Positions 6,876 to 44,232 of a stretch of DNA of 64,000 nucleotides are shown here, in pieces. The translations under genes were made by a program, and so were the position numbers. Source of the DNA: Myxococcota bacterium. GTDB lineage: Bacteria; Myxococcota_A; UBA9160; UBA6930. The stretch is taken from positions 3,520,001-3,584,000 of the forward strand of contig OZ245002.1 in the NCBI GenBank assembly GCA_965223415.1, given 5' to 3'. Under the pieces are notes generated by a model, which saw only the letters and a program-made list of their open reading frames with translations, did not search any database and was not told where the DNA came from. The stretch's first letter is position 1. Every line of letters starts with the position of its first letter.

Positions 6876-8033
6876 ATGGCCGATCCCCGCTTCGACGAGC
6901 TCGACATCGACGTGCTGCGCCGGCGCAGCGGTGAGAAATGGCGGATGTACCCGTCCGACGTCCTGCCCGTGTGGGTCGCGGACATGGACTTCGAGGTCGC
7001 CCTGCCCATCCGCCGCCGGCTCGAGGAGTGTCTGGAGGTCGGCGACCTCGGCTACCCCATGCACCCGGCGCCGACCGGACTGCCGGAGCTCTTCGCGGAG
7101 CGTGCCGCCCAGCGATGGGCCTGGCCGGTGGACCCGAAGCACGTCGAACTGCTGACCGAGGTGGTGCAGGGGATCTACGTCGCCCTCGAGCAGTTCAGTG
7201 AGCCCGGTGACGGCGTGATCGTCCAGACGCCGATCTACCCGCCATTCCTCGGCGCCGTGGAGGAGCTCGGGCGCCGGCTCGAGGAGAACCCGCTGCGTGT
7301 GGGCGAGAGCGGCTACGTCATGGACCTGGACGGCTTGGCGGAGCGGGCGGCCCGCTCGAAGGTGCTGCTGCTCTGCAACCCCCACAACCCGACCGGTCGC
7401 GTGTTCCGCCGCGAGGAGCTGCAGGCCGTGGCCGAGATCGCCGCGGCGAACGACCTGGTGGTGGTGAGTGACGAGATCCACGCGGATCTGGTGTTCCCCG
7501 GCTGCCAGCACATCCCCTTCGCCACCCTGTCGGACGACGCCGAAGCGCGGACGATCACCCTGACCTCCGCTTCGAAGGCCTTCAACATCGCCGGCCTGCG
7601 CTGCGCCCTGGCCGTCTTCGGCAGCGCCGAGCTGCGCCGGCGCTTCCTCGCCTTTCCTCGCCACTTCCGCGGCGGCCTGGGCAGCCTGGGGATCCAGGCC
7701 ACGCTGGCCGCCTGGCGCGAGGGCGACCCGTGGCTGCGCGACCTGCTCGCCTACCTGGAGGCCAACCGCGACTTCCTGGCCGACACCGTCGCCCGCGAGC
7801 TCCCGGACGTCCGCTTCTTCCGCCCCGAGGCCACCTACCTCGCCTGGCTCGACTTCCGCGCCCAGGGCCTGGCGCCGTCCCCCTACCGCCACTTCCTCGA
7901 CAAGGGAAAGGTCGCCCTCAGCGACGGCAGCCACTTCGGCCCCCCCGGCCAGGGCTTCGCCCGCATCAACTTCGCCACCTCCCGCCCCCTCCTCAGCGCC
8001 GCCCTCGACCGCCTCCTCGACTCGCTGAGGTAG
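6876..8033 (+). CDS. MalY/PatB-family PLP-dependent C-S lyase/aminotransferase
   Basis: WVADMDF, CNPHNPTGRVF, SDEIHAD, SASKAFNIAG, EATYLAWLD. Confidence 0.9.
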   Translation: MADPRFDELDIDVLRRRSGEKWRMYPSDVLPVWVADMDFEVALPIRRRLEECLEVGDLGYPMHPAPTGLPELFAERAAQRWAWPVDPKHVELLTEVVQGIYVALEQFSEPGDGVIVQTPIYPPFLGAVEELGRRLEENPLRVGESGYVMDLDGLAERAARSKVLLLCNPHNPTGRVFRREELQAVAEIAAANDLVVVSDEIHADLVFPGCQHIPFATLSDDAEARTITLTSASKAFNIAGLRCALAVFGSAELRRRFLAFPRHFRGGLGSLGIQATLAAWREGDPWLRDLLAYLEANRDFLADTVARELPDVRFFRPEATYLAWLDFRAQGLAPSPYRHFLDKGKVALSDGSHFGPPGQGFARINFATSRPLLSAALDRLLDSLR

Positions 8034-8066: not shown

Positions 8067-8888
8067 TTACTTGTGTTGCGTTGGGACCGGTTCCGTTTGT
8101 TGCGTTGTCTCGTTGCGGAGGGCTCGGGTGACGGAGCTGCGCGAGACGTCGAGCCATCGGGCGATCTCCGCGGGACGGAGTCCCATCTCCGATCGTGCTC
8201 TTCGGGCGAAGGCCGCTCGGGCACGACTCGCTGCCCTGGTCTTGCAGCGGCTGCGCAACGCGGCGGCTTCGATCCCGAACTCGAGAGCGACGACGTTCGC
8301 GAGCTCTTCCATCGTCCGTGCCCGCTCCTCTTCGTCGACCTTCATCCACTCACCGACCCGGGCTCTTGCCCTGTCGTCGTCTTCGTCGAAGAATCGCAGG
8401 GCTCGGTGCGAATCGTGGAAGGGTCGGGACTCGATGAGACCGAGCAGCGACGGGTGGCCGGTCCACGGGTAGTGCGCCAGCGCGCTGAGGGAGGGAATGA
8501 CGCCGCCGCGGACGGGGTTCAGGTGCACGTACCGAATCAGGCCCATCACGTCCGCTTCGTCGCCTGCCAGCCGCGAGATGAATCGGCTCTGGAAAAGGTA
8601 GCCGCGGCGATCATGGCGTCGATTGAAGTGCGTCGCGTACAGCAGATTGACCCGGTGCATCACCTTCGAGAGGTGAACGTCACCGGTGAGGATCAGCAGG
8701 TGCACGTGGTTCGTCATGAACGCCCAGGCGAGGCAGATGGCGCCCGATTCGCCGAGGACCCTCGTGAAGCGGCTCGCGAAGAACTCCCGGTCGAGGTCGT
8801 CCATGAAGACCGCGCGACCGTCGACGCCGCGCATCATGACGTGGTGGATGCAGCCCGGAGCGTCTAGCCGAAGAGGGCGGGGAGGCAT
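8067..8888 (-). mobile_element. REP-associated tyrosine (Y1/HUH) transposase-like protein with C-terminal HTH
   Basis: HHVMMRG, HUH motif NHVHLL, GYLFQSRF, catalytic Tyr in RYVHLNPV. Confidence 0.88.
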
Positions 8889-8945
8889 CGGTGTCTCCCG
8901 GGACCCGGGGCCCTACGAAGTTAGCGAACGGAACCGGCTCGGAAG

Positions 8946-15802: not shown

Positions 15803-17446
15803 ATGCTGTTGCCCTGGAGCCACGAATCGACGGAGCTGCGGCGCCGTCCCTGGATCACGGTCGCCCTGATCTCCGCCTGCGTGGTGGTGCTGGTCGGCAG
15901 CGAGCTGGACCCGGCGGTCCAGCAGTTCGAGAAGGCGCTGGGTGAGGCCCACGCCTTCTGGCAGAGCCACCCCTACCTGGAGCCGGGCGAGCTCCTGGCC
16001 ACCCACTTCGGCGATGACGGGGCCCGCGCTCGCGAGGAGTTCCGGGCCGACCTGGCCGCCGGTGACGTCCCGATCCCCGCCTCCGCGGTGGAAGCGGAGC
16101 AGGTCGAGCTCGACGCCCTCGCCGCCGACGCGGACGCCGCCCTCAAGCGCCACGTCTGGTATCGCTTCGGTCTCGTGCCGACGGCGCCCCGGCTGGCCGG
16201 CGTCTTTGGCCACATGTTCTTGCACGCCGGCTGGGTGCACCTGCTCGGCAACCTGCTCTTCCTGTTCCTCACCGGACCGTTCATCGAGGACCGCTGGGGG
16301 CGTTCGGTCTACCTGCTCTTCTACCTGGGAGCCGGCGTCGCCTCCGGTCTCGTCTTCGCCATCCAGAGCCCCGACCTCACCGGCCCGCTGATCGGGGCCT
16401 CCGGCGCGATCGCTGGCGCCATGGGCGCGTTCCTGGTGCTGTTCGCGACGGTGCGGATCAAGTTCGCCTACTGGCTCGGGCTCTTCTGGGGAACCTTCGC
16501 GGTGCCCGCCTGGCTGCTGTTGCCGCTCTGGTTCGGCCACGAGCTGGCGACGGCCCGCCTGATGGACGTGACCGGCGCCAGCGACGGCGTCGCCTACTGG
16601 GCCCACGTGGGCGGCTTCGCCTTCGGCGTCGCCACCGCGGCCCTCCTGCGAGCGAGTGGCGCCGACGCGCGCATGCAGCTCCGCGACGCCCGCCGGGACG
16701 AGGCGGCGGCCTCCGCCGGCATGCCGCCCTCGGGCGGGGAGGCTCCCGAGACGACGCGGGAGGCGACGCCTGCGACGCCCGCCGCTTCGATCGGTCGCCT
16801 CTGGACCGCCGTTGCCCGCGCCGACCGGGCCGGAGCCCTGCGCGAGTGGTCGGCCCTCTCGAAGGCCGGCCAGGCCGCGACCGGCGGCGACCCGGACGTG
16901 GCGCTGCGCCTGGCGGGCTGGCTCGCCGCCACCGGCCAGCAAGAGGCCGCCGCCGGCGTCCTGGCCGACCTCCTGCCCCGGGCGGACCGCGCCACGGCGG
17001 GCCGCATCGCCGGAGCCGCCCGCCGCATCGATCCCGAGCTCGCGAGCCGGGCCGCCGAGCTCGCGGCCACCCCGCCCACGCCCGAAGCTTCGCCCGCGCC
17101 CACACCGGCGCCTCCGCAGCCCACGAAATCGCCGGTCGTCGCGCCTCCGCAGCCCACGAAATCGTCGGTCGTCGCGCCTCCGCAGCCGGCCGAGCCGCCG
17201 CCCGCCGCGCGGCCGCCCACCCAGCCGGCCCCCGCGGCGGCGCCTCCCCGACCCGCTCCGGCCCCGTCGCCGGCTCTCGACCTCGATCTCTTCGAGGCGG
17301 ACGCGGTCGATCTTTCCAAGGACGACGAGGAGTGGAGCGTCGAGGCCCAGGGCGTCGATCTCGACGCGCCGGGCAGCCATGGCAGCGAAGGCGACACCGG
17401 CGCCGAGCTCTTCGACACGGACGCCTTCGACTTCTCCGAGGAATAG
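15803..17446 (+). CDS. Rhomboid intramembrane serine protease with Pro-rich linker and acidic C-terminal tail
   Basis: HMFLHAGWVHLLGN, catalytic GASG, AYWAHVGGF. Confidence 0.88.
   Translation: MLLPWSHESTELRRRPWITVALISACVVVLVGSELDPAVQQFEKALGEAHAFWQSHPYLEPGELLATHFGDDGARAREEFRADLAAGDVPIPASAVEAEQVELDALAADADAALKRHVWYRFGLVPTAPRLAGVFGHMFLHAGWVHLLGNLLFLFLTGPFIEDRWGRSVYLLFYLGAGVASGLVFAIQSPDLTGPLIGASGAIAGAMGAFLVLFATVRIKFAYWLGLFWGTFAVPAWLLLPLWFGHELATARLMDVTGASDGVAYWAHVGGFAFGVATAALLRASGADARMQLRDARRDEAAASAGMPPSGGEAPETTREATPATPAASIGRLWTAVARADRAGALREWSALSKAGQAATGGDPDVALRLAGWLAATGQQEAAAGVLADLLPRADRATAGRIAGAARRIDPELASRAAELAATPPTPEASPAPTPAPPQPTKSPVVAPPQPTKSSVVAPPQPAEPPPAARPPTQPAPAAAPPRPAPAPSPALDLDLFEADAVDLSKDDEEWSVEAQGVDLDAPGSHGSEGDTGAELFDTDAFDFSEE
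17108..17187 (+). repeat. 33-nt in-frame tandem repeat (APPQPTKS[P/S]VV, about 2.4 copies)
   Basis: gcgcctccgcagcccacgaaatcg[c/t]cggtcgtc repeated. Confidence 0.9.
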
Positions 17447-17505: not shown

Positions 17506-19434
17506 ATGCGCGAGCGGGTCTTCGGCATCGAGACCGAGTACGCGGTCGTCTACTTCCCGGCCCGGGGCGAGGAGCGGCGACCGACGAACCTCACCCTCTA
17601 CCCGCTCTTCGAGCGCTACCTGGAGCGGCGGGTGCCCGGCGTGCCGCGCGCCCTCTCCCTGCTGCGTGCGAAGCCGGGCCGCTTCCTCGCCAACGGCATG
17701 TCCTTCCACTACGAGGCGACGCCCCACGCCTTCGAGCACGGGCTCCTCGAGATCGCGAGCCCGGAGTGCCGCGATCCCTTCACGTTGCTCGCCCACGAGC
17801 GGGCCAAGGACGCGCTGGCAGAGGAGCTGCGCGGCGAGGTGAACCGGGAGCTCGCCGCCCAGGGCTGGCGCGGCGAGGTGCGCGTCTTCAAGAGCAACGT
17901 CGACGCCCACGGCCATACCTTCGGCTCCCACGAGAGCTACTGGATCGACGATCCCCTGCCGCCGCTGCGGCGCCTGGCCATCGCCCCCTTGTGGGCGGCG
18001 CTCTGGCTGCTGACCCTGCCGCCGCTGCTGTGGCTGCTGGCGGTGAGCGCCCTCATGCTGGCCGCCCCGCTCCTGCTGCTGGCGGCCCCGCCGTCGGGAG
18101 CCGCCCTGCGCGCCCTGGCCCGGCCTGCGGGCCGCCTGCACGCCCCGACCGGGCGCCGCCTGCGGCTCGCCGCCGCCCGGCTCTCCGGGCTGCCGATGCG
18201 CGTCGCCGCCCGGCTCCAGGCCGATCCCGGGGCCTTGCCCCGGCGTCTCGCCTGGGTCGAGTGGCCCCTGCGGCCGGTCCTCCACCTGCACGCTGCCTTC
18301 GCGCGGCGCTTCCTGTTCCGGCCCGCGGTTCGGGGCGCCATGGCGCACCTGGTGACGCGCACCCTCTACTGCGGTGCGGGCCGGGTCGTGTTCGACGGTG
18401 GCGACCTGCTGCACGCGAGCCAGCGCGCCGCCTTCCTGCGCGTGCCGTCGCACCTCTTCACCCACGGCGACCGCCGCCCCCTGGTGGAGCTGCGCGATCC
18501 GTTCTTCCGGCCCTGGAGCGTGTTCGGCCGGCGCCGGCGCCTGCACCTGATGCTGGCCGACGCGACCCTCTGCGACCAGGCGAGCGTGCTTCGCGTGGGC
18601 ACGACCGCCCTCGTTCTCGAGGCCATCGAGGCGAAGCCCGACGCGGCCTGGCCGGAGCTGGTCGATCCCGTCGCCGCCCTGGGCGCCCTGAGCCGTGACG
18701 TCGGGACTCCCCTGTCCCTGTGCGCCGGCGGCGAGGCGTCGGCGCTGGCGATCCAACGGGAGGTGCTGCACCGGGTGCGGGAGCGACTCCCCGGACCGGT
18801 CGCCGACTGGAAGCGCTGCGTGCTTGGCCTGTGGGAGGAGACGCTCGACGCGTTCGAGCGCGATCCAGACGCCCTGGCCGACCGGGTCGACTGGGTCGCC
18901 AAGCGCAGCCTGCTGCGCCGCGATGCCGCCTCCGCCGAGGACTGGAGGCAGCTCGCCGCCGAGGGAACGCGGCTCACCGGGACCGTTCCCGGCGACCCGG
19001 AAGGCGAGCGCCTGCGGGAGCTCGCCTTCCGCGCCCTGCGCACGGATCTCCGCTACCACGAGCTCGGGCCAAGGGGCGGCCACGCCCGCCTCCGGCGCCG
19101 CGGAGCCGTTCGCGAGCTCGCCTCCGCGGACCAGATCGAGCGCGCTCACCGCGCGCCTCCCGCCGACACCCGCGCCCACGCCCGCGGCCTGGCGATCGGT
19201 GCCGCACTGGCCGCGCCGATCCCCGGCGCCGCCACCTGGCACCGGGTGCGGATCGGTCTCACCGATTGGCGCTGGCTTCCGGATCCCCTCGACCCGGGGC
19301 CGGGTCTCGGTCTGTTCGGCAGGCGTCGACGAAGCCCCGGAACAACTGCAGCCGCCCCTCCCCCGGGAGCTTCTCCGGATGCCACTGCACGCCGAGCTGG
19401 AGGCCAGGGCCTTCGCCCTCGATCGCCTCGATGA
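17506..19434 (+). CDS. PafA/Dop (Pup ligase/deamidase) family protein with hydrophobic insertion
   Basis: GIETEY, FLANG, EIASPEC, FKSNVD..G.TFGSHESY, LVTR..YCGAG, SQRA, RRLHL, DWVAKR, DLRYHEL, PPADTRA. Confidence 0.87.
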   Translation: MRERVFGIETEYAVVYFPARGEERRPTNLTLYPLFERYLERRVPGVPRALSLLRAKPGRFLANGMSFHYEATPHAFEHGLLEIASPECRDPFTLLAHERAKDALAEELRGEVNRELAAQGWRGEVRVFKSNVDAHGHTFGSHESYWIDDPLPPLRRLAIAPLWAALWLLTLPPLLWLLAVSALMLAAPLLLLAAPPSGAALRALARPAGRLHAPTGRRLRLAAARLSGLPMRVAARLQADPGALPRRLAWVEWPLRPVLHLHAAFARRFLFRPAVRGAMAHLVTRTLYCGAGRVVFDGGDLLHASQRAAFLRVPSHLFTHGDRRPLVELRDPFFRPWSVFGRRRRLHLMLADATLCDQASVLRVGTTALVLEAIEAKPDAAWPELVDPVAALGALSRDVGTPLSLCAGGEASALAIQREVLHRVRERLPGPVADWKRCVLGLWEETLDAFERDPDALADRVDWVAKRSLLRRDAASAEDWRQLAAEGTRLTGTVPGDPEGERLRELAFRALRTDLRYHELGPRGGHARLRRRGAVRELASADQIERAHRAPPADTRAHARGLAIGAALAAPIPGAATWHRVRIGLTDWRWLPDPLDPGPGLGLFGRRRRSPGTTAAAPPPGASPDATARRAGGQGLRPRSPR

Positions 19435-20011
19435 CGCCGTCGGGCGCCCGGGCTGCCACCCGCAGACCGGCGCCCGGTGCCTCCACCGCCTGGTGGTGCA
19501 GGCTGTTCACCTCTCCGGCTGCGTCACCGAGCCAGGTGGCCAGCCGGGTGCCCGGAACGAGGGCGAGCCCGTGGCGTCCGCGGGCCTCGTCCAGCTGGTG
19601 CTCGTCGGCCTCCGGACGATCGACGGGGAGGTGGTGGTGCAGGCGGCCCCCGGCTTCGAGGGCGAGCAGCTGCATGCCGTAGCAGATGCCCAGCACCGGG
19701 AGCCCCCGGGCCCGGGCACCGGCCAGGAGCGCCGCATCGAAGGCCCGCTGCTCCGGCGCCACCGGCGTGAAGGGCGTCCCGGGCGGGTAGGGCTGCGGCG
19801 GTGGGAAGTCGTCTCCGCCGGGAAGCACGAGTCCGTCGAGTCCGTCGAGGGCGGCGGCCGGCGGGGTCGGCAGCGGCAGGTAGCACGGGGTACCCCCGGC
19901 CTCGGCCACGGCCACCGCGTAGGCCTCGTCCAGGTAGTGATAGCGGCGCCCGGGCCGGAACCGCTCGGCGGCGTCGAGGCACAGGGGAATGCCGATCCGG
20001 GGTGCGGCCAC
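19259..20011 (-). CDS. Peptidase C26 / PuuD-like gamma-glutamyl hydrolase
   Basis: GLVLPGGDD, LGICYGMQ, VNSLHHQ, GVQWHPE. Confidence 0.88.
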   Translation of the reverse strand: MAAPRIGIPLCLDAAERFRPGRRYHYLDEAYAVAVAEAGGTPCYLPLPTPPAAALDGLDGLVLPGGDDFPPPQPYPPGTPFTPVAPEQRAFDAALLAGARARGLPVLGICYGMQLLALEAGGRLHHHLPVDRPEADEHQLDEARGRHGLALVPGTRLATWLGDAAGEVNSLHHQAVEAPGAGLRVAARAPDGVIEAIEGEGPGLQLGVQWHPEKLPGEGRLQLFRGFVDACRTDRDPAPGRGDPEASANR

Positions 20012-22465: not shown

Positions 22466-22563
22466 ACAGGGGCTCCGGGCTTCGCGCCGGGCCCCAGGCC
22501 CTGGTTCGGGCGCCCGTGGGCGAGACCGCATCCGTCACGCCCGCGCGATAGCCTTGGCGCACG

Positions 22564-25500
22564 ATGGGGAACGGGATGGAAGGGGCTGTCGTCGCCTGCC
22601 GCGGTGCGCGGGCCGCCGAGGAGCGGCTGGTGGGCGAGGTCGTGGCGCTCGTCGAGGCGGCGGCCCGCACGCCGGGTGGCCTGCTCCGGCCGGTTCGCGT
22701 GCTCGTTCCGTCGGCCAGCCTGCGCGAGCACCTGTGCGCACGCCTGGTGCGCGACCGCCCGGCGCTCCTGGGCGTGGAGGTAACGACCCTCGCCGCCTGT
22801 GCCCGGTCCCTGGCCGCCCGCCGGCCGGGCCCGGCGCGGAGAGGCGAGCCCCTGCTGCCGGTCCTGGCGCGTCGGGCCGCGCGGGAAGAGCCGGAGCTGC
22901 AGCGCGAGCTGCGGGATCCGGGCGGACGGGGCGGCGTGCTGGTCGGCGTGGTGCGCGATCTGCTCGACGCCGGCTTCGAGCCCGCCCACGAAGAGGGCGT
23001 CTGCGATCGTCTCTCCCAGCTCGCCACGGGTCGGCCCCGGGAGCGCGCGCTCGCCCTGGTGCGGGTCGCGCGCCGGGTGTTCGTCGCCTGCGAGCAGGGT
23101 GGGCTGGTGCCGCGGGCGGCGCTCTACCGCGCCGCGCGGGAGGTGCTCGAGGAGGAGGGCGAAGCCGCGCTTCCGTCGACGGCGGTCCGGATCCACGGGG
23201 TCGCGGATGCGACCGGCGTCGTGAGCGACCTGATCGCCGCCCTGGTGCGCGAGCTGGGTGCCCGGGTGACGCTGCCGCTTCCCGACGACCCGGCCTTCCC
23301 CGGGGCTCCGGCACCGGGTCACCGCTTCACCGATCGGCTCCTCGAACGCCTGGGCGAGCCGGCCCCGGCCGATCCGGCTTCGGGGGCCGAGCCGGCCGCG
23401 GCCGATTCCGACGCCGAACCGCCGCGGCTCGTGCTCCAGCGGGCGCAGGGTGCGAGCGCCGAGGCCCGGGCGACGGCGCTCGAGCTGCGGGCCCGCCTCG
23501 ACGCCGGCGCCGTGCCGGAGCGCCTGGGCATCGTGGCGCGGGATCTCGGCGGCTATCGGCTGGCGCTCTCCCGGGAGCTTCGCGCGTTCGGCATCCCCTT
23601 CTCCGGCGGCCAGGGCTTCGCCACCCGCGAGACGCGCCGGGTGCGGGCGCTGCTCGCGCTGCTGACCGAGGGGGGCGAGTGCACCGCCGACCGCTGGCTC
23701 GACGCCGCCGACGCCTTCCGGGGCGGGCATCTCGCGGACCTGCGGCTCGGGCTCCACGGGCTCGGCATCGGGCGACTGCGGGACGTCGCCGCCCTCGACC
23801 TCGAAGCGCGCCTCGGCGCGGCGAGCGGGCTCCGCCTGCCCGCGGTGCGTGGCGTGGTCGACGACGAGGAGGATCTGCTCTCCGGCGCGGGCGAGGTCTC
23901 CCGCCCGCGGACGCCGTCCCGCCTGCTGCGCCGACACATCTCCCGCAAGACGCTCGCCTGGGCCGTGGCGGCGGCCGGCGCCGCCCTCGAGTGGCTCGAG
24001 GGCTTCGCGAAGTGCCGCGCGCTTTCGGTCCACGGCGAAGCCCTGGATGCGCTGCTGGACGGTCCCCTCGGCTGGCGCCCGACGACCCCGGGGCGCGAGC
24101 TGGTCCGGGCCGCCCGCGACGGGCTGGCAGCAGAGCTGCTCCCGCACTGGGAGTTCGACGGTGAGGAGCTGGCGCTCCTGCTGGCCGGCCCGCTCGAGGG
24201 CGCCGGCACACCCGGCCTGGGCGGGGAGGGCGGCGGTGTCCAGGTGCTCTCGGCCATGGAGGCCCGCGGCCGTTGCTTCGACGCGCTCTTCCTCCTCGGC
24301 CTGAACCGCGACAGCTTCCCGCGACCCGTCGTGGAGGATCCGCTGCTTCCCGACGGGCTGCGCCGGGGGCTGCTGCCGCTGCTGCCGGACCTTCCGGTGA
24401 AGGGCCGGGGCTTCGACGAGGAGCGGCACCTGTTCGCCTGGCTGTGTTCGGCGGCGCCGGAGGTGGTGCTCTCCTGGCAGGCGGTCAGCGACGACGGGAA
24501 GGAGCGGCCGCGCTCCCCGTTGGTCGAGCGCGTGCTCCTGGCCCGGCCCGAGCTGCCCGTGCGCGAAGCCCTGGCACCGGTCGAGGCGGAGGCGGCCCTG
24601 CGGCCCCTTGGCGAGCAGGTACAGCGCGCTGGGCTCCACGGCGGGCCGCGGGCCCAGGCGGCCCTGCTCGGTGCCCTGGACCGGGAGCGCGGGGCCACCC
24701 GCATGGCGGTGCAGGCCGAGCTGGAAGGGCGGGGGCCGGCCCGGCAGGAGCCCGGTCCCTACTCGGGCTTCGTCGGTGCCGATCCCGCGCGCCTCGAGGG
24801 GCTCTTCGTGACCCGCCTCGAGCGCCTCTCCTGGTGCCCCTGGCAGCACTTCCTCGAGCGCCACCTCGGCCTGGAGCCGGTTCCGGACGCCTTCGCCGCG
24901 CTTCCCGACACCAGCCCGGCCCTGCTCGGCAACGTGGTCCACGACGCCCTCGAAGCCCTGGTCGAGCGGGCGGGCGCACCCACTCGGCGCCCTCTGGCAG
25001 AGGGGGCCGACGAGGCCCCGGTCGACGTGCCCTGGCCGGACGACACCGAGCTCGATGCGCTGCTCCTCGCCGCCGCCCACCGGGCTGCCTCCGAGGAGGG
25101 GATCGTGCTGCCGGCGTTCGCCCACTTCCTGGCCCGGCGGGCGCGGCCGCTCCTGGTGCGCATCGGTGAGCTGGAGACCCGGGACGGCGTGCTGCCCGGC
25201 GTCGTCGGCGCTGAGCTCGAGGCGTCGCGTCCGGTGACCGGGCCGAAGGGTCCCGTCGAGCTGCGGTTCCGGGCCGATCGCGTCGACCTTCGGGAGAAGG
25301 GCCTCGAGCTGGTCGACTACAAGACCGGTCGTCCGGTCTCCGACGCGAAGCGGGCGTCGACGCGGGAGGGGCACCTGCTCACGCAGGTCCGCGAGGGCAA
25401 GCGGCTGCAGGTCGCCGCCTACGCCGCGCCGGGGGGCGCCACCGCGGCGCGGGTCGGCCGCTTCGTGTTCGGCCGACCCGGCCTCGAAGACGACCACGCC

Positions 25501-25785
25501 CTCGTGCGCGTCGAGGCCGAGGACGCCGCCGCCCGGGCGGCTTTCGACGACGCCGCGGGCATCCTCCTCCGCGCGCTCGCTGCAGGTGCGTTGCCGCCGC
25601 GGCTGCTCAACCCCCAGCTCACCGAAGAGAACAACGCCTGCGAGCACTGCGAGCTGGCCGAGGCCTGCGGGCGGGGCGACAGCGGTGCTCGCCGGCGCTT
25701 CGCCGCCTGGATCCGCGGCAGGGGCGGCTCCGACGCCGTGCGCGCCGCAAGGGACGCCTTCGATCTCCGGACGGGCGGCGCGTGA
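22564..25785 (+). CDS. addB: AddB-like subunit (degenerate helicase fold plus PD-(D/E)XK nuclease, Fe-S cysteines)
   Basis: EERHLF, WCPW, RADRVD, LVDYKTG, CEHCELAEAC; coupled to addA. Confidence 0.78.
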   Translation: MGNGMEGAVVACRGARAAEERLVGEVVALVEAAARTPGGLLRPVRVLVPSASLREHLCARLVRDRPALLGVEVTTLAACARSLAARRPGPARRGEPLLPVLARRAAREEPELQRELRDPGGRGGVLVGVVRDLLDAGFEPAHEEGVCDRLSQLATGRPRERALALVRVARRVFVACEQGGLVPRAALYRAAREVLEEEGEAALPSTAVRIHGVADATGVVSDLIAALVRELGARVTLPLPDDPAFPGAPAPGHRFTDRLLERLGEPAPADPASGAEPAAADSDAEPPRLVLQRAQGASAEARATALELRARLDAGAVPERLGIVARDLGGYRLALSRELRAFGIPFSGGQGFATRETRRVRALLALLTEGGECTADRWLDAADAFRGGHLADLRLGLHGLGIGRLRDVAALDLEARLGAASGLRLPAVRGVVDDEEDLLSGAGEVSRPRTPSRLLRRHISRKTLAWAVAAAGAALEWLEGFAKCRALSVHGEALDALLDGPLGWRPTTPGRELVRAARDGLAAELLPHWEFDGEELALLLAGPLEGAGTPGLGGEGGGVQVLSAMEARGRCFDALFLLGLNRDSFPRPVVEDPLLPDGLRRGLLPLLPDLPVKGRGFDEERHLFAWLCSAAPEVVLSWQAVSDDGKERPRSPLVERVLLARPELPVREALAPVEAEAALRPLGEQVQRAGLHGGPRAQAALLGALDRERGATRMAVQAELEGRGPARQEPGPYSGFVGADPARLEGLFVTRLERLSWCPWQHFLERHLGLEPVPDAFAALPDTSPALLGNVVHDALEALVERAGAPTRRPLAEGADEAPVDVPWPDDTELDALLLAAAHRAASEEGIVLPAFAHFLARRARPLLVRIGELETRDGVLPGVVGAELEASRPVTGPKGPVELRFRADRVDLREKGLELVDYKTGRPVSDAKRASTREGHLLTQVREGKRLQVAAYAAPGGATAARVGRFVFGRPGLEDDHALVRVEAEDAAARAAFDDAAGILLRALAAGALPPRLLNPQLTEENNACEHCELAEACGRGDSGARRRFAAWIRGRGGSDAVRAARDAFDLRTGGA

Positions 25786-28700
25786 CCCGCCCCGACGACC
25801 GCAAGCTCCGGGACGCCGATCGCCGCGCTCGCGAAGAGGCGCAGCTGCGCTTCGATCGTCCCCTCGTGCTCGAGGCGGGCGCCGGCACCGGCAAGACGGC
25901 AGTGCTGGTCGCCCGCATCGTGGTGTGGTGCCTCGGGCCGGGCTGGGAGCGGGCGGAGGCGCGGCTCGCCGGGCGCTCGGGGCCCGCGGCGCCGGCTCGC
26001 GCCGAGCAGGTGGCGGCGGAGGTGCTTCGCGGCGTTGTGGCCATCACGTTCACCGAGGCGGCTGCGGCGGAGATGGCCTCCCGGGTCGCCGAGGCCCTGC
26101 TCGACCTGCGCGGCGGCGGGCTGCCCCAGGGCTTCCTCGAGCGCGCGCTCCCGCCCCCGTTGATGCGGCATCCGCGTATCGAGGCTCTGGTCGGCGCGCT
26201 CGACCAGCTCGCCGTGCGCACGATCCACGCGGCCTGCCGGCGCTGGCTGGCCGCCCACGCGGTGGACGCGGGCCTGCGGCCGGGCTTCGAGGTGGACGCG
26301 GACGGCCAGCAGCAGGCCGAGGCGGCCCGGGAGGCGCTCGAGGCCCTCCTGCCTCGCGCCTTCGGCGAGTCCTTCGATCCGGACTTCGGCGTCCTGACCG
26401 ACGCGGGTCTCGGGCCGCGGGACGTGGAGGAGGCGCTGATCACCCTGCTCGCCGAGGGCGCCGCGCCGGACGACCTGGCCGGCGAGCCGATCACGCCGGA
26501 CGCCCTGGCCACGCTCGCCGCCCGCCTGCGGGACGCCGTCGACCGCTTTCTCGCGGTCGAGGCCGGGCGCCTGGCCGGGCTCGGCGGCAAGGCGCCGGCG
26601 GTGACCCGAACGATGGAGCGGCTCCTCGCCACCCGCGCCGCGCTCGAGGGCGACCCGCCCGGGGATGCGGAAGGCTGGCAGCCGCTGCGCCAGGCGCTGG
26701 CCGCGCTGTGGCCCGGAGCGCCGAAGGACATGGGTCGTCTGATCGCCTGGGCGAAGGGCGACTTCCCCGCCCGGGCCGAGCTCGGCGACGACGCCGAGGC
26801 CCTCCAGGGCCTCGCCGCTCCCCTGCTGCACGGGCTGCGCCACGTGCTTCGCTTCGACCCGGTCCTGCTCGGTGCGGCGCGGCGGGTGCTGCACGAGCTG
26901 CTCGCCGATGCCCACGAGAGGCTGCAGGATCGCGGTGCCCTCACCTTCGGCGGCCTCCTGCGGGGCGCCCGGGACCTCCTGGATGCGCGGCCCGACGTCG
27001 CCGCCCGCCTGCGCGGCGAGATCGATCAGCTCCTGGTCGACGAGTTCCAGGACACCGACGCCCTCCAGTGCGAGATCCTGGAGCGGCTCGCCCTGGAGGG
27101 CGACGAGGGGGAGCGCCCCGGCCTCTTCCTGGTCGGCGATCCGAAGCAGTCGATCTACGGCTGGCGGGGAGCGGACCTGCGCGCCTACCAGGGCTTCGTC
27201 GCCCGGGCTCGTGCAGCCGAAGGGGAGGTGTTGCCGCTGGTCGTGAACTTCCGCTCGACGGCGGCGGTGCTCGACGAGGTCGAGCGCCTGATCGAGCCGG
27301 TCATGCAGGAGGCCCCCGGCTTCCAGCCCGCCTTCCAGCGGCTGCTTCCGCGGGAGGGCGAGAGGCCGGAAGACCTCCCCACTCCCTTCCGTCCCGTCGA
27401 GCACTGGATCAGCTGGCCCGCGGGCGATGACGGCGTGCCCGACCCGGGTCGGCCCAAGCGCGAGGCCAGCGAGCTGGAGGCCCGGCGCGTGGCCGCCGAT
27501 CTGCAGCGCCTGCGCGCAGCCGGCGTCTCCCCCGGCGACGTCGCCCTGCTGCTCCGCTCCACCGGCGACTTCGACGTCTACCTGGGCGCCCTGCGCGAGG
27601 CCGGGATCCCCTACGTCGTCGAGCGCGAGGAGCAGCACGGCCGCCGCCGCGAGGTGGTCGACGCCCTCGCCTGGCTCCGCTGCCTGCTCGACCCGAACGA
27701 CGCGCTCGCTCTGGTGGCCACCTTGCGCTCGTCGCTGGTCGGTGTACCCGACGCGGCGCTCGTGCCCCTCTGGCGGCGAAAGCTGCCGGAACGGGTCGCC
27801 CGGCTGCGCGGCGCCCCCGCCGACGAGATCGAGACGCTCTGCCGCGAGGTACGGGAGGTCGCGAAGGCGTTGCCGCCGGAGGTGCCGGGCCTCGAGCGCA
27901 TCGCCGGCTGGGAGGAGGGCCTGGTCGCCTTCCTGCGCGAGCTCGGCCCGCTGCGCGCGCTGGCGGAAGAGGGGCCCGTGGATCGCTTCGTGGAGGCGTT
28001 GCGCGGGCCCTTCGGGCTCGAGGCCGCCGAGGCCGGGCGCCACCTGGGCGCGCACCGTCTCGCCAGCCTCGACCGGGTGTTCCGGGAGCTCGCCCTCGCG
28101 CTCGAGAGCACCGGTGGCTCCGCCGCCGCCGTGCTCTCCTACCTGCGCCGGGCCGGCGGACCGGACCGCGAGCACCGGGAAGGGCGGCGCCGCGCCTTCC
28201 ACGAGGACGCGGTGCACGTCATGACCGTGCACAAGGCCAAGGGTCTGGGCTTCCGTCACGTCTACCTGCTGCAGAGCCACAAGGGAGAGGCGCGGGATGC
28301 GGCCCGGCGCACCACCTGGGTGCACCGGGGCGGGCGCAGCGAGTACGTGCTGTTCGGGGCCGCGACGCCGGGCATGCTCTCCCTCGAGGAAGAGCGCGCG
28401 GAGGTCGAGGCCAGCGAGCGGGTGCGGCTGCTCTACGTGGCGGCGACCCGCGCGAAGCAGCGCCTCGTGATCGCCGGCAAGCGTCCGGCGCGGCCGCGCA
28501 ACGCCGCGCCCACTTCGTTCTCCGACCTGCTCGGCCGGCGTCGACGTGCCCCCGCCGACCTGGCGGCGGCCCTGGCCGAGGCCACCGCCGAAGGGCGCAC
28601 CCACGACGGCGACGGCGTGATGTGGGGCTTCCCCGCCCTCTGGCCGCCGCCGGAGCCCCTGCCCGCGGAATCTGGAACCGCGGCCCTGCTGTCTGCCGCG

Positions 28701-29357
28701 GAGGTCCTCGCCGGGGAAGAGCGGCTGGAAGCCGCCCGGGAGGCGGCACGGGAACGGGAGGGGCGGCCGTTCCGCGACACCGCCTCGTCCCGTCACGCTC
28801 CCCTGGACGACGAGGGGGGGAGCGTCGGCGCCCGCGACCCGCGGGCCCGCGCCCGCGCGATGGAGGTGGGCAATGCGGTGCATGCCTGGCTCGAGGAGCT
28901 GGCCCTCGAGACGCCGCCCGACACCTGGCCTCCCGGGCTGGAGGCGGCGCTCGACGACCAGGGCCTGGATCCCGAGAGCCGGGCCCGCGCCGCCCAGCTC
29001 GCCGAGCGCTTCGTCGGCTCGCCGCTGGCCGCCCGTCTGCACGGGCTCGCCGGGCGCCTGATCGGGCGGGAGGTGCCGCTGCTCCTCGCGCCGGAGGAGG
29101 GCCGCGACCCGAGCGTGGGCTGTGTGGTCGGCAACATCGATCTCCTCTACCGCGACGAGGACGGCGAAGTGGTGGTCGCCGACTACAAGACCGATGCGGT
29201 CCGCGGCGCCGACGCCCTGGCCGCTCGCAGCCAGGCCTACGCCGGCCAGGGCCAGGTCTACGTCCGGGCCGTCCAGGCCGCCCTGGGCCTGGCCGAGCCC
29301 CCGCGCTTCGAGCTCTGGTTCCTCGACGCCGGCCGGATCGTCACGCCCGGGCCGTGA
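25782..29357 (+). CDS. addA: AddA-like UvrD helicase-nuclease
   Basis: AGAGTGKT, VDEFQDT, VGDPKQSIY, TVHKAKG, LYVAATRA, GNID, DYKTD. Confidence 0.88.
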   Translation: MTRPDDRKLRDADRRAREEAQLRFDRPLVLEAGAGTGKTAVLVARIVVWCLGPGWERAEARLAGRSGPAAPARAEQVAAEVLRGVVAITFTEAAAAEMASRVAEALLDLRGGGLPQGFLERALPPPLMRHPRIEALVGALDQLAVRTIHAACRRWLAAHAVDAGLRPGFEVDADGQQQAEAAREALEALLPRAFGESFDPDFGVLTDAGLGPRDVEEALITLLAEGAAPDDLAGEPITPDALATLAARLRDAVDRFLAVEAGRLAGLGGKAPAVTRTMERLLATRAALEGDPPGDAEGWQPLRQALAALWPGAPKDMGRLIAWAKGDFPARAELGDDAEALQGLAAPLLHGLRHVLRFDPVLLGAARRVLHELLADAHERLQDRGALTFGGLLRGARDLLDARPDVAARLRGEIDQLLVDEFQDTDALQCEILERLALEGDEGERPGLFLVGDPKQSIYGWRGADLRAYQGFVARARAAEGEVLPLVVNFRSTAAVLDEVERLIEPVMQEAPGFQPAFQRLLPREGERPEDLPTPFRPVEHWISWPAGDDGVPDPGRPKREASELEARRVAADLQRLRAAGVSPGDVALLLRSTGDFDVYLGALREAGIPYVVEREEQHGRRREVVDALAWLRCLLDPNDALALVATLRSSLVGVPDAALVPLWRRKLPERVARLRGAPADEIETLCREVREVAKALPPEVPGLERIAGWEEGLVAFLRELGPLRALAEEGPVDRFVEALRGPFGLEAAEAGRHLGAHRLASLDRVFRELALALESTGGSAAAVLSYLRRAGGPDREHREGRRRAFHEDAVHVMTVHKAKGLGFRHVYLLQSHKGEARDAARRTTWVHRGGRSEYVLFGAATPGMLSLEEERAEVEASERVRLLYVAATRAKQRLVIAGKRPARPRNAAPTSFSDLLGRRRRAPADLAAALAEATAEGRTHDGDGVMWGFPALWPPPEPLPAESGTAALLSAAEVLAGEERLEAAREAAREREGRPFRDTASSRHAPLDDEGGSVGARDPRARARAMEVGNAVHAWLEELALETPPDTWPPGLEAALDDQGLDPESRARAAQLAERFVGSPLAARLHGLAGRLIGREVPLLLAPEEGRDPSVGCVVGNIDLLYRDEDGEVVVADYKTDAVRGADALAARSQAYAGQGQVYVRAVQAALGLAEPPRFELWFLDAGRIVTPGP

Positions 29358-32756: not shown

Positions 32757-33211
32757 CTATCGCGCCCGCTCCGGGTCCGGCCGGCTGGGCAGGGCCTCGA
32801 GCCAGGCCAGCCAGTCCTCCGGCAGTCCGTGCTCCCGGGCGCCCTCGAGGATCAGCTGCCGGTACCAGTCGAAGGGCACGGGATCGCCGGTTCGGCGCTC
32901 GGAGCGGTAGGTGAGGGCGGCGTGGGAGGCGCCCCGCGGCGATTGCACCTGCACCTGGAGGCGCTCGTAGCCTCCCTCGAAGCGATCGAGGATCTCGAGC
33001 TGCCCCGGCCCGAGCCGGTAGAGCGCCCCCCAGACGTGAGCCCTCGGATCGGCGCGGAGGTTGGCCTTGGCGGAGCCGTCGCTGCCGGCCTTGTCGCACA
33101 CCAGGCGTGTCCCGGAAGGCGCGCCGCTCCGAGCGGCTCGATCACGGGGACGCGCTCGCGGAGGCGACCCATCGAGAGGTTCGAGCCGTAGGCGAAGTAG
33201 AGGACGGTCAC
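32757..33211 (-). pseudogene. Gamma-glutamylcyclotransferase (GGCT/AIG2-like) with a 1-nt frameshift at about 33107 (real lesion or sequencing error)
   Basis: YFAYGSNL in one frame; VWGALY, LDRFEGGY, GAREHGLP in another; one added C restores GHRLVCDK. Confidence 0.8.
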
Positions 33212-34173
33212 CGAGCCCGAAGGGCCTGCACGCTGAACCACTGCCTCGGGTCGGTCCACACGCGCTCCACCTCGAAGCCGGCCTCCCGGGCGACGCCGGC
33301 GAAGCTCTCCAGCGAGTACTTGTGGGAGTGCTCGGTGCAGATCGTCTCGCCGGCGGTGAACCCGATCGTCTCGCCGCCGAGCCGCACCTGCTGGGCCACT
33401 TCGCTCACCAGGTGCATCTCGACGCGGGCGTCCTCGGCATTCCAGTGGGCGCGATGGCGGAAGGCCTCGAGATCGAAGTCGGCCCCGAGCTCCTCGTTCA
33501 GGCGGACGAGAAGGTTGCGGTTGAAGGCGGCGGTGACGCCTGCTGCGTCGTCGTAGGCCCGCTCGAGGACCTCCACGTCCTTGACCAGATCGACCCCGAT
33601 CAAGAGCACGCCGCCGCGTCCGACCTCGGCGTGGGCGGTGTGCAGCAGGGCGGTGGCCGGACCGGTCTCGAAGTTGCCGATGGTGGAGCCCGGGAAGTAG
33701 ACGGCCACCGTGGCCGGCGGCACGCGGGAGGCCGGCACGTCGAAGGGCCGGGTGAAGTCGGCGCACACCGGCAGGATCTCGATCTCCGGATGCTCCGCGT
33801 CGAGCGCTTCTGCCGTGGCCAGCAGGTGCTCGCGGGAGATGTCGACCGGCGCGTAGCCGGCGGGCTCCTCCAGGAGGTCGAGCAGCAGGCGGGTCTTCGT
33901 GCTCGAGCCGCTCCCGTACTCGACGAGCAGGCAGCGGGGGCCGAGCACGGCGGACATCTCCTTCCCGTGCAGGCGCATGATCTCGAGCTCGGTGCGAGTC
34001 GGGTAGTACTCGGGCAGCTCGCAGATCTCCTCGAAGAGGGCGGAGCCCCGCTCGTCGTAGAAGTACTTGCAGGGCAGCTCCTTCGGCGAGCGGGCCAGGC
34101 CCGCGAGCGCGTCGCGCAGGAGCTCGGCTCGCTCGGGCTCGTAGTCGGTGAGCGCGAGTTCGGCCGTCTTCAT
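33208..34173 (-). CDS. egtD: L-histidine N-alpha-methyltransferase EgtD
   Basis: KYFYDERGS, PEYYPTRTE, EYGSGSSTKT, FPGSTIGN, TEHSHKY. Confidence 0.92.
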   Translation of the reverse strand: MKTAELALTDYEPERAELLRDALAGLARSPKELPCKYFYDERGSALFEEICELPEYYPTRTELEIMRLHGKEMSAVLGPRCLLVEYGSGSSTKTRLLLDLLEEPAGYAPVDISREHLLATAEALDAEHPEIEILPVCADFTRPFDVPASRVPPATVAVYFPGSTIGNFETGPATALLHTAHAEVGRGGVLLIGVDLVKDVEVLERAYDDAAGVTAAFNRNLLVRLNEELGADFDLEAFRHRAHWNAEDARVEMHLVSEVAQQVRLGGETIGFTAGETICTEHSHKYSLESFAGVAREAGFEVERVWTDPRQWFSVQALRAR

Positions 34174-34192
34174 GGGGTCTCCTCCGCGGTGC

Positions 34193-34681
34193 TCAGAATC
34201 GGATCAGCTCCACGTCGAGTTGCTCCAGGTCGACGACGCCGATCGTGTTGTGTCCCTGCATCATGCCGGCGCACTCGCCCGGGTTGAAGGCCAGCCCGCC
34301 ATCCTGCTGCCATTCCCGGGTGGTGAGGTGGGTGTGGCCGTGGAGGGCCAGGGTACCGGGCCCGAGGGCGACGTCCGCGAGCTCCAGCGGATCGTGCACC
34401 ACCACGACATCGCGGTCCTGCCAGGTGACGCGAAGTGGTGGGTCGACGATCTGGAAGCCCAGCTGGCTGGCGGTCTCCTCGAGGCTCGGGCGCTCGAGAT
34501 CGTTGTTGCCGTAGACGCCGACCATCGGACACACGAGAGGCGAGAGGGCGTGCAGGGTCTTGGCCTGGGTGATGTCGCCGGTGTGCACGACGCGACTCAC
34601 GCCGGCGGAGTTGAAGAGCTCGACGATGCGGGCGACGTTGCGCAGGTTGTTGTGGGTGTCGCTGACGACTCCAATGCGCAT
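34193..34681 (-). CDS. YfcE-family metallophosphoesterase
   Basis: SDTH, HTGD, GNND, HGHTH, NPG. Confidence 0.88.
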   Translation of the reverse strand: MRIGVVSDTHNNLRNVARIVELFNSAGVSRVVHTGDITQAKTLHALSPLVCPMVGVYGNNDLERPSLEETASQLGFQIVDPPLRVTWQDRDVVVVHDPLELADVALGPGTLALHGHTHLTTREWQQDGGLAFNPGECAGMMQGHNTIGVVDLEQLDVELIRF

Positions 34682-42941: not shown

Positions 42942-44232
42942 CAGGCTGCGGAAGAACGCCGATGGTACGCAGAGAACGGTGCCTTGGAGGCGCTTTGGCT
43001 AGGAAAGGAGCGCGGAATCGAGGCCTTGCCGCCGGTTGACGCCCGGCTCGCTGCCAACGGGGCCCTCCACTCGACCCGACAAGCTACGTGGGGCATAGCA
43101 GGTTCCTCATCCTCACAAGGTTGTAGGCCGCCTGGGTGAACGTGAACATCCAGCCCACCCGCTCCTTGCCGCGATGCTTCACCTTGCGAATCGGGCCTAC
43201 CGTCTTCCCCCAGCCGAAGACCTGCTCGATCGCCTTGCGTTTGCGCTGGCTGATCTCGTAGCCCACGTGCGTCGTCGTTCGATCATCGATCGCGCTGCGG
43301 CGGCCCTTGTCGTTCTGCGCAACGTGCGGGGTCACGCCCAGCTCTCGAAGCTCTTCGACATGCGACACCGTGTCGTAGCCCTTGTCTCCGCCCAACGTCG
43401 ATCGCCGTCCGCGTGGCACCCGCTTCACCATCGCCACCGAGGCCTCGCGCTCCGCCGTGCCCGTGGCCAGCGTCGTCTTGGCCGCCACCACCAGGCCATG
43501 CCGGTTCTCCGTCACCACGTGGCCCATGAAGCACAGCTTCGCTTCCTTCCCCTTCCCCTTGCGGTAGAGCCGGGACTCCGGGTCCGTCGTCGAGGCGTGC
43601 GTGTCGTTCTTCCTACGCTCACCGTGGAAGTCCCGCTCCGTCGCCTTCCGTCCACCCCCGCGGCCGCCCCGGTCCTCGTCCTTCGGCCGAAAGCTCTTCT
43701 GCCCCGCCCATGCCTCGATCAGCGTGCCGTCCACCGTGAAGTGCTCGTCCGACAGAAGCCCCTCCTCGCGGGCCTCCGCCAACACGGCCTGAAAGAACCC
43801 CTCCGCGATCTCTCCCCGAAGCAACCGATCCCGATTCTTCGTGAACACCGTCACGTCCCAGACCCGGTCGTCCATCTCGAGCCCCACGAACCAGCGGAAC
43901 AGCAGGTTGTACTCGAGCTGCTCCATCAGCATCCGCTCGCTTCGCACCGAGTAGAGCACCTGCAGCAGCAGGGCCCGCAACAGGTGCTCGGGCGGAATCG
44001 ACGGCCGACCCGTCCGCGAGTACAGCTTCCGCAACCTCCCGTCCAGCCGGACCAGGGCGCGATTCGTCATCTCCCGCGTCACGCGCAGTGGATGATCGGC
44101 GGGGACACGCGCCTCCGGCGACACGTAGCTGAACATCGTGGACTGCGTTCGATCGGTTCCGCGCATCTCCATCCCCCCGGTATGCCTGTACCAACCGATT
44201 CGACCCGTCGCACGGGGTTTTTCCGCAGCCTG
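42942..44232 (-). mobile_element. IS5-family insertion sequence with 16-bp IRs (15/16 match) and CTAG target duplication
   Basis: caggctgcggaagaac / gtttttccgcagcctg; CTAG at 42938-42941 and 44233-44236. Confidence 0.93.
43084..44172 (-). CDS. IS5-family DDE transposase
   Basis: GRPSIPPE, YNLLFRWF, VDGTLI, GDKGYD, RKAIEQVFG. Confidence 0.95.
   Translation of the reverse strand: MEMRGTDRTQSTMFSYVSPEARVPADHPLRVTREMTNRALVRLDGRLRKLYSRTGRPSIPPEHLLRALLLQVLYSVRSERMLMEQLEYNLLFRWFVGLEMDDRVWDVTVFTKNRDRLLRGEIAEGFFQAVLAEAREEGLLSDEHFTVDGTLIEAWAGQKSFRPKDEDRGGRGGGRKATERDFHGERRKNDTHASTTDPESRLYRKGKGKEAKLCFMGHVVTENRHGLVVAAKTTLATGTAEREASVAMVKRVPRGRRSTLGGDKGYDTVSHVEELRELGVTPHVAQNDKGRRSAIDDRTTTHVGYEISQRKRKAIEQVFGWGKTVGPIRKVKHRGKERVGWMFTFTQAAYNLVRMRNLLCPT

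Follow-up and report, generated by a model that had tools for sequence, protein, structure and literature searches.

What does a Pup ligase-like enzyme do at a locus that has no gene for Pup or the proteasome? The question is raised by a 64-kb stretch of contig OZ245002.1 from a Myxococcota bacterium (the window, meaning the whole stretch analyzed here), which encodes a protein of the PafA/Dop family that we designate PafX. As the initial annotation of this DNA had stated, no pup, mpa, or prcAB gene lies within the 64 kb. That annotation also described the enzyme as stand-alone, which is true of the locus but not of the genome, where a full canonical Pup-proteasome cluster is found far upstream. 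We find that PafX is a third PafA/Dop paralogue and that it belongs to a branch of the family marked by a conserved insertion that resembles a membrane hairpin in its properties. Whereas the other enzymes of this branch sit beside a gene for a Pup-like tag, the PafX clade has none. Pupylation has so far been studied as a soluble, cytoplasmic pathway. We suggest that PafX may be a membrane-tethered ligase that uses the canonical Pup of its own genome, a reading to which, taken as a whole chain, we give an even chance of being right.

PafX is a third member of the PafA/Dop family

The PafX open reading frame (ORF) is genuine, with an ATG start and a GC content per codon position (0.80/0.57/0.90) like that of real genes in this window, which has 72% GC overall. 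The product had been assigned to the PafA/Dop fold from its motifs, with a search against PF03136 proposed as a check, and both parts of that assignment hold. The Pfam Pup_ligase model PF03136 aligns with residues 4 to 581 over nearly its full length (profile positions 1 to 440 of 441; E value of 1.2e-76; 259 bits, with a Pfam gathering cut-off of 25 bits), and the motif series is found complete and in the order given, as GIETEY (residues 7 to 12), FHYE (67 to 70), SHESYW (141 to 146), LVTR (282 to 285), PPADTRA (551 to 557), and PDP (592 to 594). PafX does not reach the NCBIfam equivalog level for either known enzyme, scoring 194.6 against a cut-off of 551.3 for PafA (TIGR03686) and 166.4 against 492.3 for Dop (TIGR03688). 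The genome's own PafA and Dop score 557.2 and 587.6 against these same cut-offs.

Among proteins of known structure, the best sequence match is to Dop (9cku_G; E value of 2.8e-33), with PafA (4b0t_A) at 2.7e-32. These alignments fall into separate blocks that leave out the middle of PafX. With the PafA of this genome, BLASTP likewise gives two blocks, residues 3 to 148 at 28% identity and residues 282 to 584 at 31%. PafX homologs numbered 201 matches, and from the best 120 of these we took 43 members of the PafX clade, with 49 to 76% identity, for the alignment (A1) on which the statements of conservation below are based. The Lys content of PafX is 0.93%, the 21st percentile of 2,475 long ORFs in the genome, which rules out a "lysine desert."

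The insertion has the properties of a membrane hairpin

The skipped middle of the protein is a family-specific insertion. In the BLASTP alignment, PafX residues 149 to 281 face 15 residues of PafA, a net gain of ~118 amino acids, and the segment aligned to residues 147 to 280 is kept in all 43 clade members at a length of 120 to 135 residues. This corresponds well to the ~130-residue insertion between HESY and LVTR in the initial annotation. The hydrophobic run of ~38 residues reported there is also found, as 45 residues (157 to 201) free of Asp, Glu, Lys, Arg, His, Asn, and Gln.

Across the clade, this uncharged run has a median length of 49 residues (range, 24 to 55), and in two members, P0104 and P0116, a single Gln divides it into two halves of 24. 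The Kyte-Doolittle mean over 19 residues is ≥1.6 in the hydrophobic part of the PafX insertion and peaks at 2.3, the hairpin flanks carry net positive charge on either side, and close to the start of the run W167 is invariant and W163 nearly so. The second half of the insertion is Arg rich, with a clade median net charge of +7 over residues 205 to 262 and a hydropathy below the transmembrane threshold. It conserves P241, P254, P257, and H262 and probably forms membrane-surface helices that lead back to the fold.

These features point to a two-helix membrane hairpin with basic surface helices after it. The even number of spans fits, since both halves of the split ATP-using domain need to be on the cytoplasmic side. 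PafX would have no signal peptide, because the catalytic GhExE motif begins at residue 7. A search of the ESM Atlas with the insertion sequence alone gave no usable match. The earlier proposal of membrane association stands as regards a conserved insertion with hairpin-like properties, from which we infer insertion into the membrane itself.

The active site is altered but conserved

Dop is described as binding metal through Glu8, Glu10, Tyr92, Glu99, His155, and His241, with D94 at the catalytic center (PMC8599861). PafX residues E9 and E11 are the counterparts of the Mg ligands Glu8 and Glu10, and E9, E11, E82, H142, and H347, which correspond to Dop Glu8, Glu10, Glu99, His155, and His241, are invariant in all 43 clade members. 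The remaining ligand, Tyr92, is the Tyr of the RxYxD strand. It is replaced by His68 in PafX, and His, Tyr, Trp, or Asn is found there across the insertion-bearing branch.

Further differences are seen in the same strand, which in PafX reads S66-x-H68-x-E70, with Ser for Arg, His for Tyr, and Glu for Asp. In alignments with PafA and Dop from this genome, Glu70 falls opposite the Asp of RxYxD; the initial annotation had noticed from the FHYE motif an apparent Glu in place of the catalytic Asp of PafA. Glu70 is invariant in 43 of 43. The loop after this strand is 7 residues longer in PafX. As the equivalent strand and loop of PafA form the beta3/4 region that touches the substrate, the acceptor or even the chemistry may differ in PafX. 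In PafA, D64 is the proposed catalytic base, and R201 and R207 of an extended loop are reported to be essential (bioRxiv 10.64898/2026.04.10.717840); their PafX equivalents, R324 and R330, are invariant in the clade. A degenerate active site had been named beforehand as a finding that would count against a functional enzyme. The alignment gives the opposite picture, with metal and nucleotide ligands invariant in 43 of 43, and by this measure the site is altered yet conserved, not decayed.

A Dop loop of 40 to 65 residues before strand beta2 is reported for all Dop orthologues (PMC8599861). PafX lacks it, being ~25 residues shorter at this place than the genome's own Dop and without its conserved sequence. 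In addition, the PafA model outscored the Dop model by 20 to 28 bits in all four branch members scanned. By sequence, PafX is thus more PafA-like than Dop-like. Deamidation, an activity that the initial annotation had offered beside ligation, is unlikely, given that PafX has no Dop loop and that a terminal Glu is already present on the tag.

A glutamate and an insertion mark a branch of the family

To see how far these features extend, an exhaustive HMMER search of representative proteins was used, which gave 2,736 matches at an E value of ≤1e-3 and 219 at ≤1e-30. The best 150 of the 2,736 representatives, to which PafA and Dop from this genome were added, were mapped onto PafX, and 137 of the resulting 152 rows were assessable. 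Glu at position 70 occurs together with a hydrophobic insertion in 120 of the 137, with a median spacing of 130 residues between H142 and R285, and Asp occurs without an insertion in 14, with a median spacing of 31 residues; the exceptions to the pairing number three. Among the insertion-bearing representatives within the best 150, Glu is found in 120 of 121, and Glu70 is probably compatible with function. The uncharged run of 45 to 55 residues with basic flanks is kept in a family of just 28 to 41% identity. Several other branch members also show one long hydrophobic run only.

A maximum-likelihood tree of 54 rows, rooted at the midpoint only, separates the insertion-bearing enzymes (42 rows) from the canonical ones (12 rows) with full support (100/100; ultrafast bootstrap/SH-aLRT). 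The PafX clade (12 rows), also supported at 100/100, lies inside the insertion branch, and its grouping with P0125 is weak (85/83). The pairing of Glu for Asp with a membrane insertion can serve as a family marker, by which annotation pipelines could drop the name "PafA2/Dop" for such proteins.

The PafX clade lacks the tag gene of its relatives

Outside the PafX clade, we compared 15 loci of the insertion branch, 8 from other families of the same phylum and 7 from metagenome-assembled genomes of Planctomycetota and Vulcanimicrobiota. All 15 have a small ORF directly upstream of the enzyme gene and on the same strand, whose product ends in PxGGE in 14 cases and in KGAE in 1. These small proteins share with canonical Pup the pattern aromatic-[VLI]-[KRQ]-[NDE]...GGE, as seen when the canonical FVKNYVQRGGE is set against a branch example, YVKNFVAPGGGE. 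The branch tag genes probably lack annotation in most records, because the Pfam Pup and NCBIfam models recognize none of the six that were scanned. In the five myxobacterial branch genomes tested (93 to 99% complete), the insertion enzyme is the sole PF03136 member in every case, and none has a Pfam Pup match above the cut-off. We infer from this association that the insertion branch works with Pup-like tags.

The PafX loci differ. The window and 31 related loci together have 4,334 ORFs within 5 kb, and none of these is a conserved small ORF ending in G[EQ]. A scan of the whole genome covered 80,821 ORFs of at least 25 residues, of which 25 end in GG[EQ], and canonical Pup is the only plausible tag among these. 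A hidden Markov model (HMM) built from eight branch tags also found no match in the whole genome (best E value of 2.4). Two tags fused to larger proteins were considered and rejected: the C terminus of PafX itself, which ends in GE in just 3 of 31 loci, and the acidic C-terminal tail of the rhomboid protein encoded upstream of PafX, whose end varies among syntenic loci (SEE, GED, DDE, DLF, and DIF). We take it that the PafX clade lost the tag gene that is kept beside the enzymes of its relatives.

A canonical Pup-proteasome system is encoded elsewhere in the genome

The only Pup-like tag found in this genome belongs to a complete canonical cluster. Its Mpa scores 744.7 with the pup_AAA model (cut-off of 504.75), and its Pup, the sole PF05639 match in the genome (E value of about 1e-17), ends in QRGGE. 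Among 35 aligned relatives of this Pup, the C terminus is GGE in 31 and GGQ in 4. The cluster sits in a genome of Gram-negative type, with LolA, Mla, and AsmA present. Its Dop (L004 9011-10492) and PafA (L004 13361-14758) contain 5.3% and 5.8% Lys, respectively, against a median of 1.76% in the 2,475 long ORFs, which could reflect strong constraint or foreign origin.

These findings bear on two further points of the initial annotation. Action on an ordinary Pup encoded elsewhere had been named there as something that would tell against its view, and half of this is found, in that such a Pup exists, along with Dop, PafA, Mpa, and PrcBA. The suggestion that PafX is the core of a separate tagging system is weakened by the canonical system and by the lack of any second Pup-like tag in the genome.

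The PafX clade occurs only within one class, of which 148 of 151 sampled genomes carry PF03136 matches. PafX, scored in the 151 genomes with the A1 profile at an E value of ≤1e-100, is present in 26: its own genome, 6 of 22 others in its own family, and 19 of 32 from one family in a different order. It was found in none of 96 genomes from nine further families of the class. Of the 26 PafX-positive genomes, 23 have three or more PF03136 matches, and the three exceptions are the least complete (58 to 75%). Four of the 26 profile matches (G103, G064, G038, and G150) carry the flag "1 TGA inside." Recoding was rejected for G150, the one flagged match that was checked (against locus L009), where the profile match simply extends beyond the true stop codon, into the tail that is not conserved.

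Across lineages the pattern is complementary, as tag-bearing branch enzymes occur without canonical Pup and the tagless clade occurs with it. This is more telling than the co-occurrence of PafX and the canonical system within the class, yet few independent lineages stand behind it.

Genomic neighborhood

The gene order in the window is Amt, P-II, DUF1318, rhomboid, PafX, a convergent C26 peptidase, and peroxiredoxin; coordinates of the main features are collected in Table 1. The translation of the rhomboid gene contains the motifs HxxxN, GASG, and AHVGG. The gene ends 59 bp before the PafX start on the same strand, and no terminator-like site was found in this spacer. Immediately upstream of PafX there is a rhomboid gene in the window and nine related loci (one of them a weak match ~1 kb away), as well as in every judgeable PafX-positive genome of the same family, and in this subclade the gap is 50 to 100 bp. 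This gives a hint of rhomboid-PafX cotranscription, nothing more. The cytoplasmic C-terminal part of the rhomboid is highly variable, the window copy having 547 residues with a Pro-rich, acidic tail. Rhomboids in other genera (L012 7607-9949; L099 2906-5668, minus strand) have 740 to 950 residues and contain a TPR-like region plus a conserved "LRLRSDRYDPR" domain for which no Pfam match was found.

The C26 gene has gamma-glutamyl-GABA hydrolase as its best NCBIfam match, below the cut-off of that model, and adjoins PafX in the window and 10 of 31 related loci. The 3' ends of PafX and C26 overlap by ~176 nucleotides (19259-19434). Both tails lie outside the conserved domains and are shared by only the closest relatives; that of PafX is common only to two (P0004 and P0005, the latter of 643 residues with 100% query coverage).

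In two PafX-negative relatives, Amt, P-II, and rhomboid converge on C26 and peroxiredoxin without PafX, which rules out rhomboid and PafX as an inseparable two-gene module. Because these relatives keep both neighbors, it appears that PafX comes and goes at the junction while rhomboid and C26 stay. A second subclade (18 loci) has a housekeeping context instead, with fpg divergently upstream, thiI upstream, and gatC downstream. In these 18 loci (L033 11801-12124 and 17 others), gatC follows PafX on the same strand after 22 to 239 bp, and gatA and gatB are not adjacent in L033. The gatC adjacency is probably inherited synteny within one family.

PADLOC defense models matched neither PafX nor four other branch members, the rhomboid, or C26. 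Elsewhere in the window are an IS200-like (Y1_Tnp) transposase gene (8070-8912, minus strand), an IS5-like (DUF772/DDE_Tnp_1) transposase gene (43087-44232, minus strand), two large genes that encode PD-(D/E)XK nuclease and UvrD-helicase domains in an AddB/AddA-like arrangement (22552-29354, plus strand), and a histidine-specific S-adenosylmethionine methyltransferase gene (33211-34203, minus strand; Methyltransf_33, E value of 3e-110) of the EgtD type of ergothioneine synthesis.

Table 1. Features of the PafX locus and of the loci compared with it (window positions unless another locus is named)
Feature	Location	Strand	Basis or remark
PafX, 642 residues, third PafA/Dop (Pup_ligase) paralogue, transmembrane-insert branch	17506..19434	+	
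GhExE motif GIETEY (G7-Y12)	17524..17541	+	Invariant in 43/43 clade members
Glu70 codon, site of the catalytic Asp of PafA (D64) and Dop (D94)	17713..17715	+	Alignments
Family-specific insertion, residues 149-281, after the strand ending in His142	17950..18348	+	Between two BLASTP blocks against own PafA
Predicted two-helix membrane hairpin, residues 157-201	17974..18108	+	Hydropathy, charge
Arg-rich second half of insertion, residues 202-281	18109..18348	+	
R324...R330, counterparts of the "extended loop" residues R201 and R207 of PafA	18475..18495	+	Mapped on own PafA; clade invariant
Second, smaller insertion, C-terminal domain, about residues 473-510	18922..19035	+	~25-residue gap opposite own PafA and Dop
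Unconserved PafX C-terminal tail	19300..19434	+	Overlaps 3' end of convergent C26 gene
Rhomboid-family intramembrane protease gene	15803..17446	+	PF01694, E 1.6e-24
Convergent Peptidase C26 (gamma-glutamyl hydrolase-like) gene	19259..20011	-	PF07722, E 1.9e-46
Canonical cluster Mpa-Dop-Pup-PrcB-PrcA-PafA	C1:3295514-3302616 (locus L004 6720-14758)		~235 kb upstream of PafX
Small ORFs upstream of branch enzymes, first set	L062 6097-6264; L064 6102-6278; L065 5851-6075; L066 5878-6045; L067 7515-7679 (-)		
Small ORFs upstream of branch enzymes, second set	L068 6038-6262; L069 4171-4350 (-); L063 about 7567-7700 (-); L071 3253-3420; L072 3594-3770		
Small ORFs upstream of branch enzymes, third set	L073 281-478; L074 3791-3976; L075 3780-3974; L076 3781-3975; L070 3744-3920		

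Proposed function and alternatives

We propose that PafX, with its PafA/Dop fold, works as an ATP-dependent carboxylate-amine ligase and that the two-helix hairpin, which follows the His142 strand, would hold its cytoplasmic catalytic domain at the inner membrane. If PafX acts as PafA does, it would take a Pup-type tag, phosphorylate the C-terminal Glu on its gamma-carboxylate, and then join the tag to lysines of proteins that lie in or at the membrane. Glu70 would take over the role of base that Asp has in PafA, and the tag would be the canonical, GGE-ending Pup. A ligase is favored because the tag-plus-enzyme genomes have a branch member as their sole family member beside a Glu-ending tag, and because the Dop loop is absent. 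Canonical Pup is the most likely tag since the clade appears to have lost its own tag gene and the genome encodes exactly one Pup-like tag. If true, pupylation, and possibly targeting to the Mpa-proteasome, would extend to membrane proteins.

Several observations weigh against this proposal. Placement of the insertion in the membrane is predicted from hydropathy and charge. Three residues of the RxYxD strand differ (S66, H68, and E70), as does the length of the following loop. PafX and the Pup cluster are ~235 kb apart, with no physical link, and the PafX neighborhood varies between subclades, rhomboid upstream and C26 downstream being found together in one only. That PafX co-occurs with the canonical system says little, given that the system is present in 148 of 151 genomes of the class in any case. 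Finally, literature searches for experimental work on membrane-bound Pup ligases gave only PMC2588565 and a 2010 essay citing it.

The remodeled acceptor-side strand and the loss of an adjacent tag, which is absent from the window and 31 loci and present in all 15 from the rest of the branch, could instead mean that PafX no longer handles a protein tag. It might join or turn over another carboxylate and amine at the membrane, such as a gamma-glutamyl compound or the amine of a lipid head group. The C26 gene that converges on PafX in the window and 10 of 31 loci, which is gamma-glutamyl hydrolase-like, would suit such chemistry, and other ligases of the superfamily are described as paired with GATase-like peptidases (PMC2588565). 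However, C26 is kept in relatives without PafX, so that the pairing reads as backbone synteny, and it is absent from the other subclade. R324 and R330, whose PafA equivalents face the tag C terminus, are conserved, as is the whole C-terminal domain. We regard tag-independent chemistry as unlikely, though worth keeping in mind.

The same fold also serves Dop, PafA itself is reported to move Pup between substrates (PMC5358908), and the genome already has a dedicated soluble ligase, all of which would be in keeping with PafX as a membrane-bound depupylase or Pup transferase that removes canonical Pup from membrane proteins or moves it among them. Against this, PafX is without the loop reported for all Dop orthologues (PMC8599861), the Dop model scores below the PafA model, and a branch member that is the sole PF03136 protein beside a ready-to-ligate GGE tag must be a ligase. 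This alternative seems to us quite improbable.

A tag of its own, encoded elsewhere and too divergent to recognize, is a poorer prospect. Branch tags are short and diverse, escape the Pfam and NCBIfam models (0 of 6), and in one case end in GAE rather than GGE, so one could be overlooked. Yet the 80,821 genome ORFs hold a single plausible GG[EQ] tag, canonical Pup, the tag HMM finds nothing, and in all 15 comparison loci the tag adjoins its enzyme and is never remote. The view that the insertion is no membrane anchor, or that PafX is a catalytically dead scaffold, draws on the replaced catalytic Asp and on an anchor predicted from sequence, and it is very hard to reconcile with a basic-flanked, uncharged run of 45 to 55 residues conserved at 28 to 41% identity and with invariant metal and nucleotide ligands.

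Comparison with known systems

In eukaryotic endoplasmic reticulum (ER)-associated degradation, a membrane E3 ligase works with rhomboid-like Derlins, which are inactive, an AAA ATPase, and the proteasome. By analogy, a predicted membrane tagging enzyme here lies beside a rhomboid gene in a genome with an AAA unfoldase and a 20S proteasome. One could imagine that membrane proteins are first recognized or cut within the bilayer and then receive Pup on the cytoplasmic side, after which the AAA ATPase would pull them out for degradation. The differences are substantial: the proteins and chemistry are unrelated, the rhomboid here has catalytic Ser/His motifs, and the rhomboid link is confined to one PafX subclade, with the rhomboid staying where PafX is absent. 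That PafX and the rhomboid form a bacterial counterpart of ER-associated degradation, in a bacterium with a full Mpa-proteasome, is a speculation that we consider improbable. Bolder yet would be a variant in which the remodeled acceptor site takes a lipid amine, which would yield a lipid-anchored Pup.

Among prokaryotic enzymes, PafX resembles PafA (of Corynebacterium glutamicum and mycobacteria; PDB 4B0T and 4BJR) in its GhExE motif, Mg/ATP ligands, R201/R207 equivalents, C-terminal domain, and lack of a Dop loop. Unlike PafA, it has Glu for the catalytic Asp, Ser and His for Arg and Tyr, a loop longer by 7 residues, two insertions, and a gene outside the Pup cluster. With Dop (PDB 4B0R, 5LRT, 7OXV and others, and 9CKU) it shares the fold and metal ligands but not the 40- to 65-residue Dop loop or the catalytic Asp, and its score lies far below the equivalog cut-off.

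The closest parallel was drawn in 2008 by Iyer, Burroughs, and Aravind, who predicted membrane-anchored Pup ligases in Plesiocystis pacifica and Rhodopirellula baltica (PMC2588565). According to that paper, these ligases are linked to Pup and a membrane-protein gene, not to proteasome genes, and probably modify membrane proteins. A 2025 minireview (PMC12288473) contains neither the word "membrane" nor "transmembrane." PafX agrees with the enzymes described in 2008 in the fold, in the site of insertion right after the conserved His-bearing strand, and in the lack of a proteasome gene at the locus. Its nesting within the transmembrane-insert branch (42 rows, 100/100) indicates common descent. 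The initial annotation had considered the system possibly undescribed. The kind of enzyme is in fact not a new category, since Pup ligases with a transmembrane insertion at this very site were predicted in 2008 and at least 120 representatives of the branch are found among the best 150.

PafX nevertheless stands apart from its branch. Whereas PMC2588565 gives four transmembrane segments, PafX shows two of ~24 residues, the remainder of the insertion being Arg rich, and it keeps His142 and His347, where most of the branch has Gln. The other insertion-branch enzymes have an adjacent Pup-like gene (15 of 15 loci) and are the single PF03136 member of their genomes (5 of 5), whereas for PafX no such neighbor is found in the window or 31 loci, and its genome also encodes Dop, PafA, Pup, Mpa, and PrcBA. 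What is new is this arrangement, in which a third paralogue that has no tag of its own occurs together with a complete Pup-proteasome system. It makes the PafX clade the cleanest test of the 2008 prediction, with one ordinary Pup, soluble ligase, depupylase, and proteasome accompanied by one paralogue that is predicted to be membrane tethered. If the prediction is true, this bacterium would direct the same tag to a second compartment, and its study could reveal a proteasomal route for membrane proteins.

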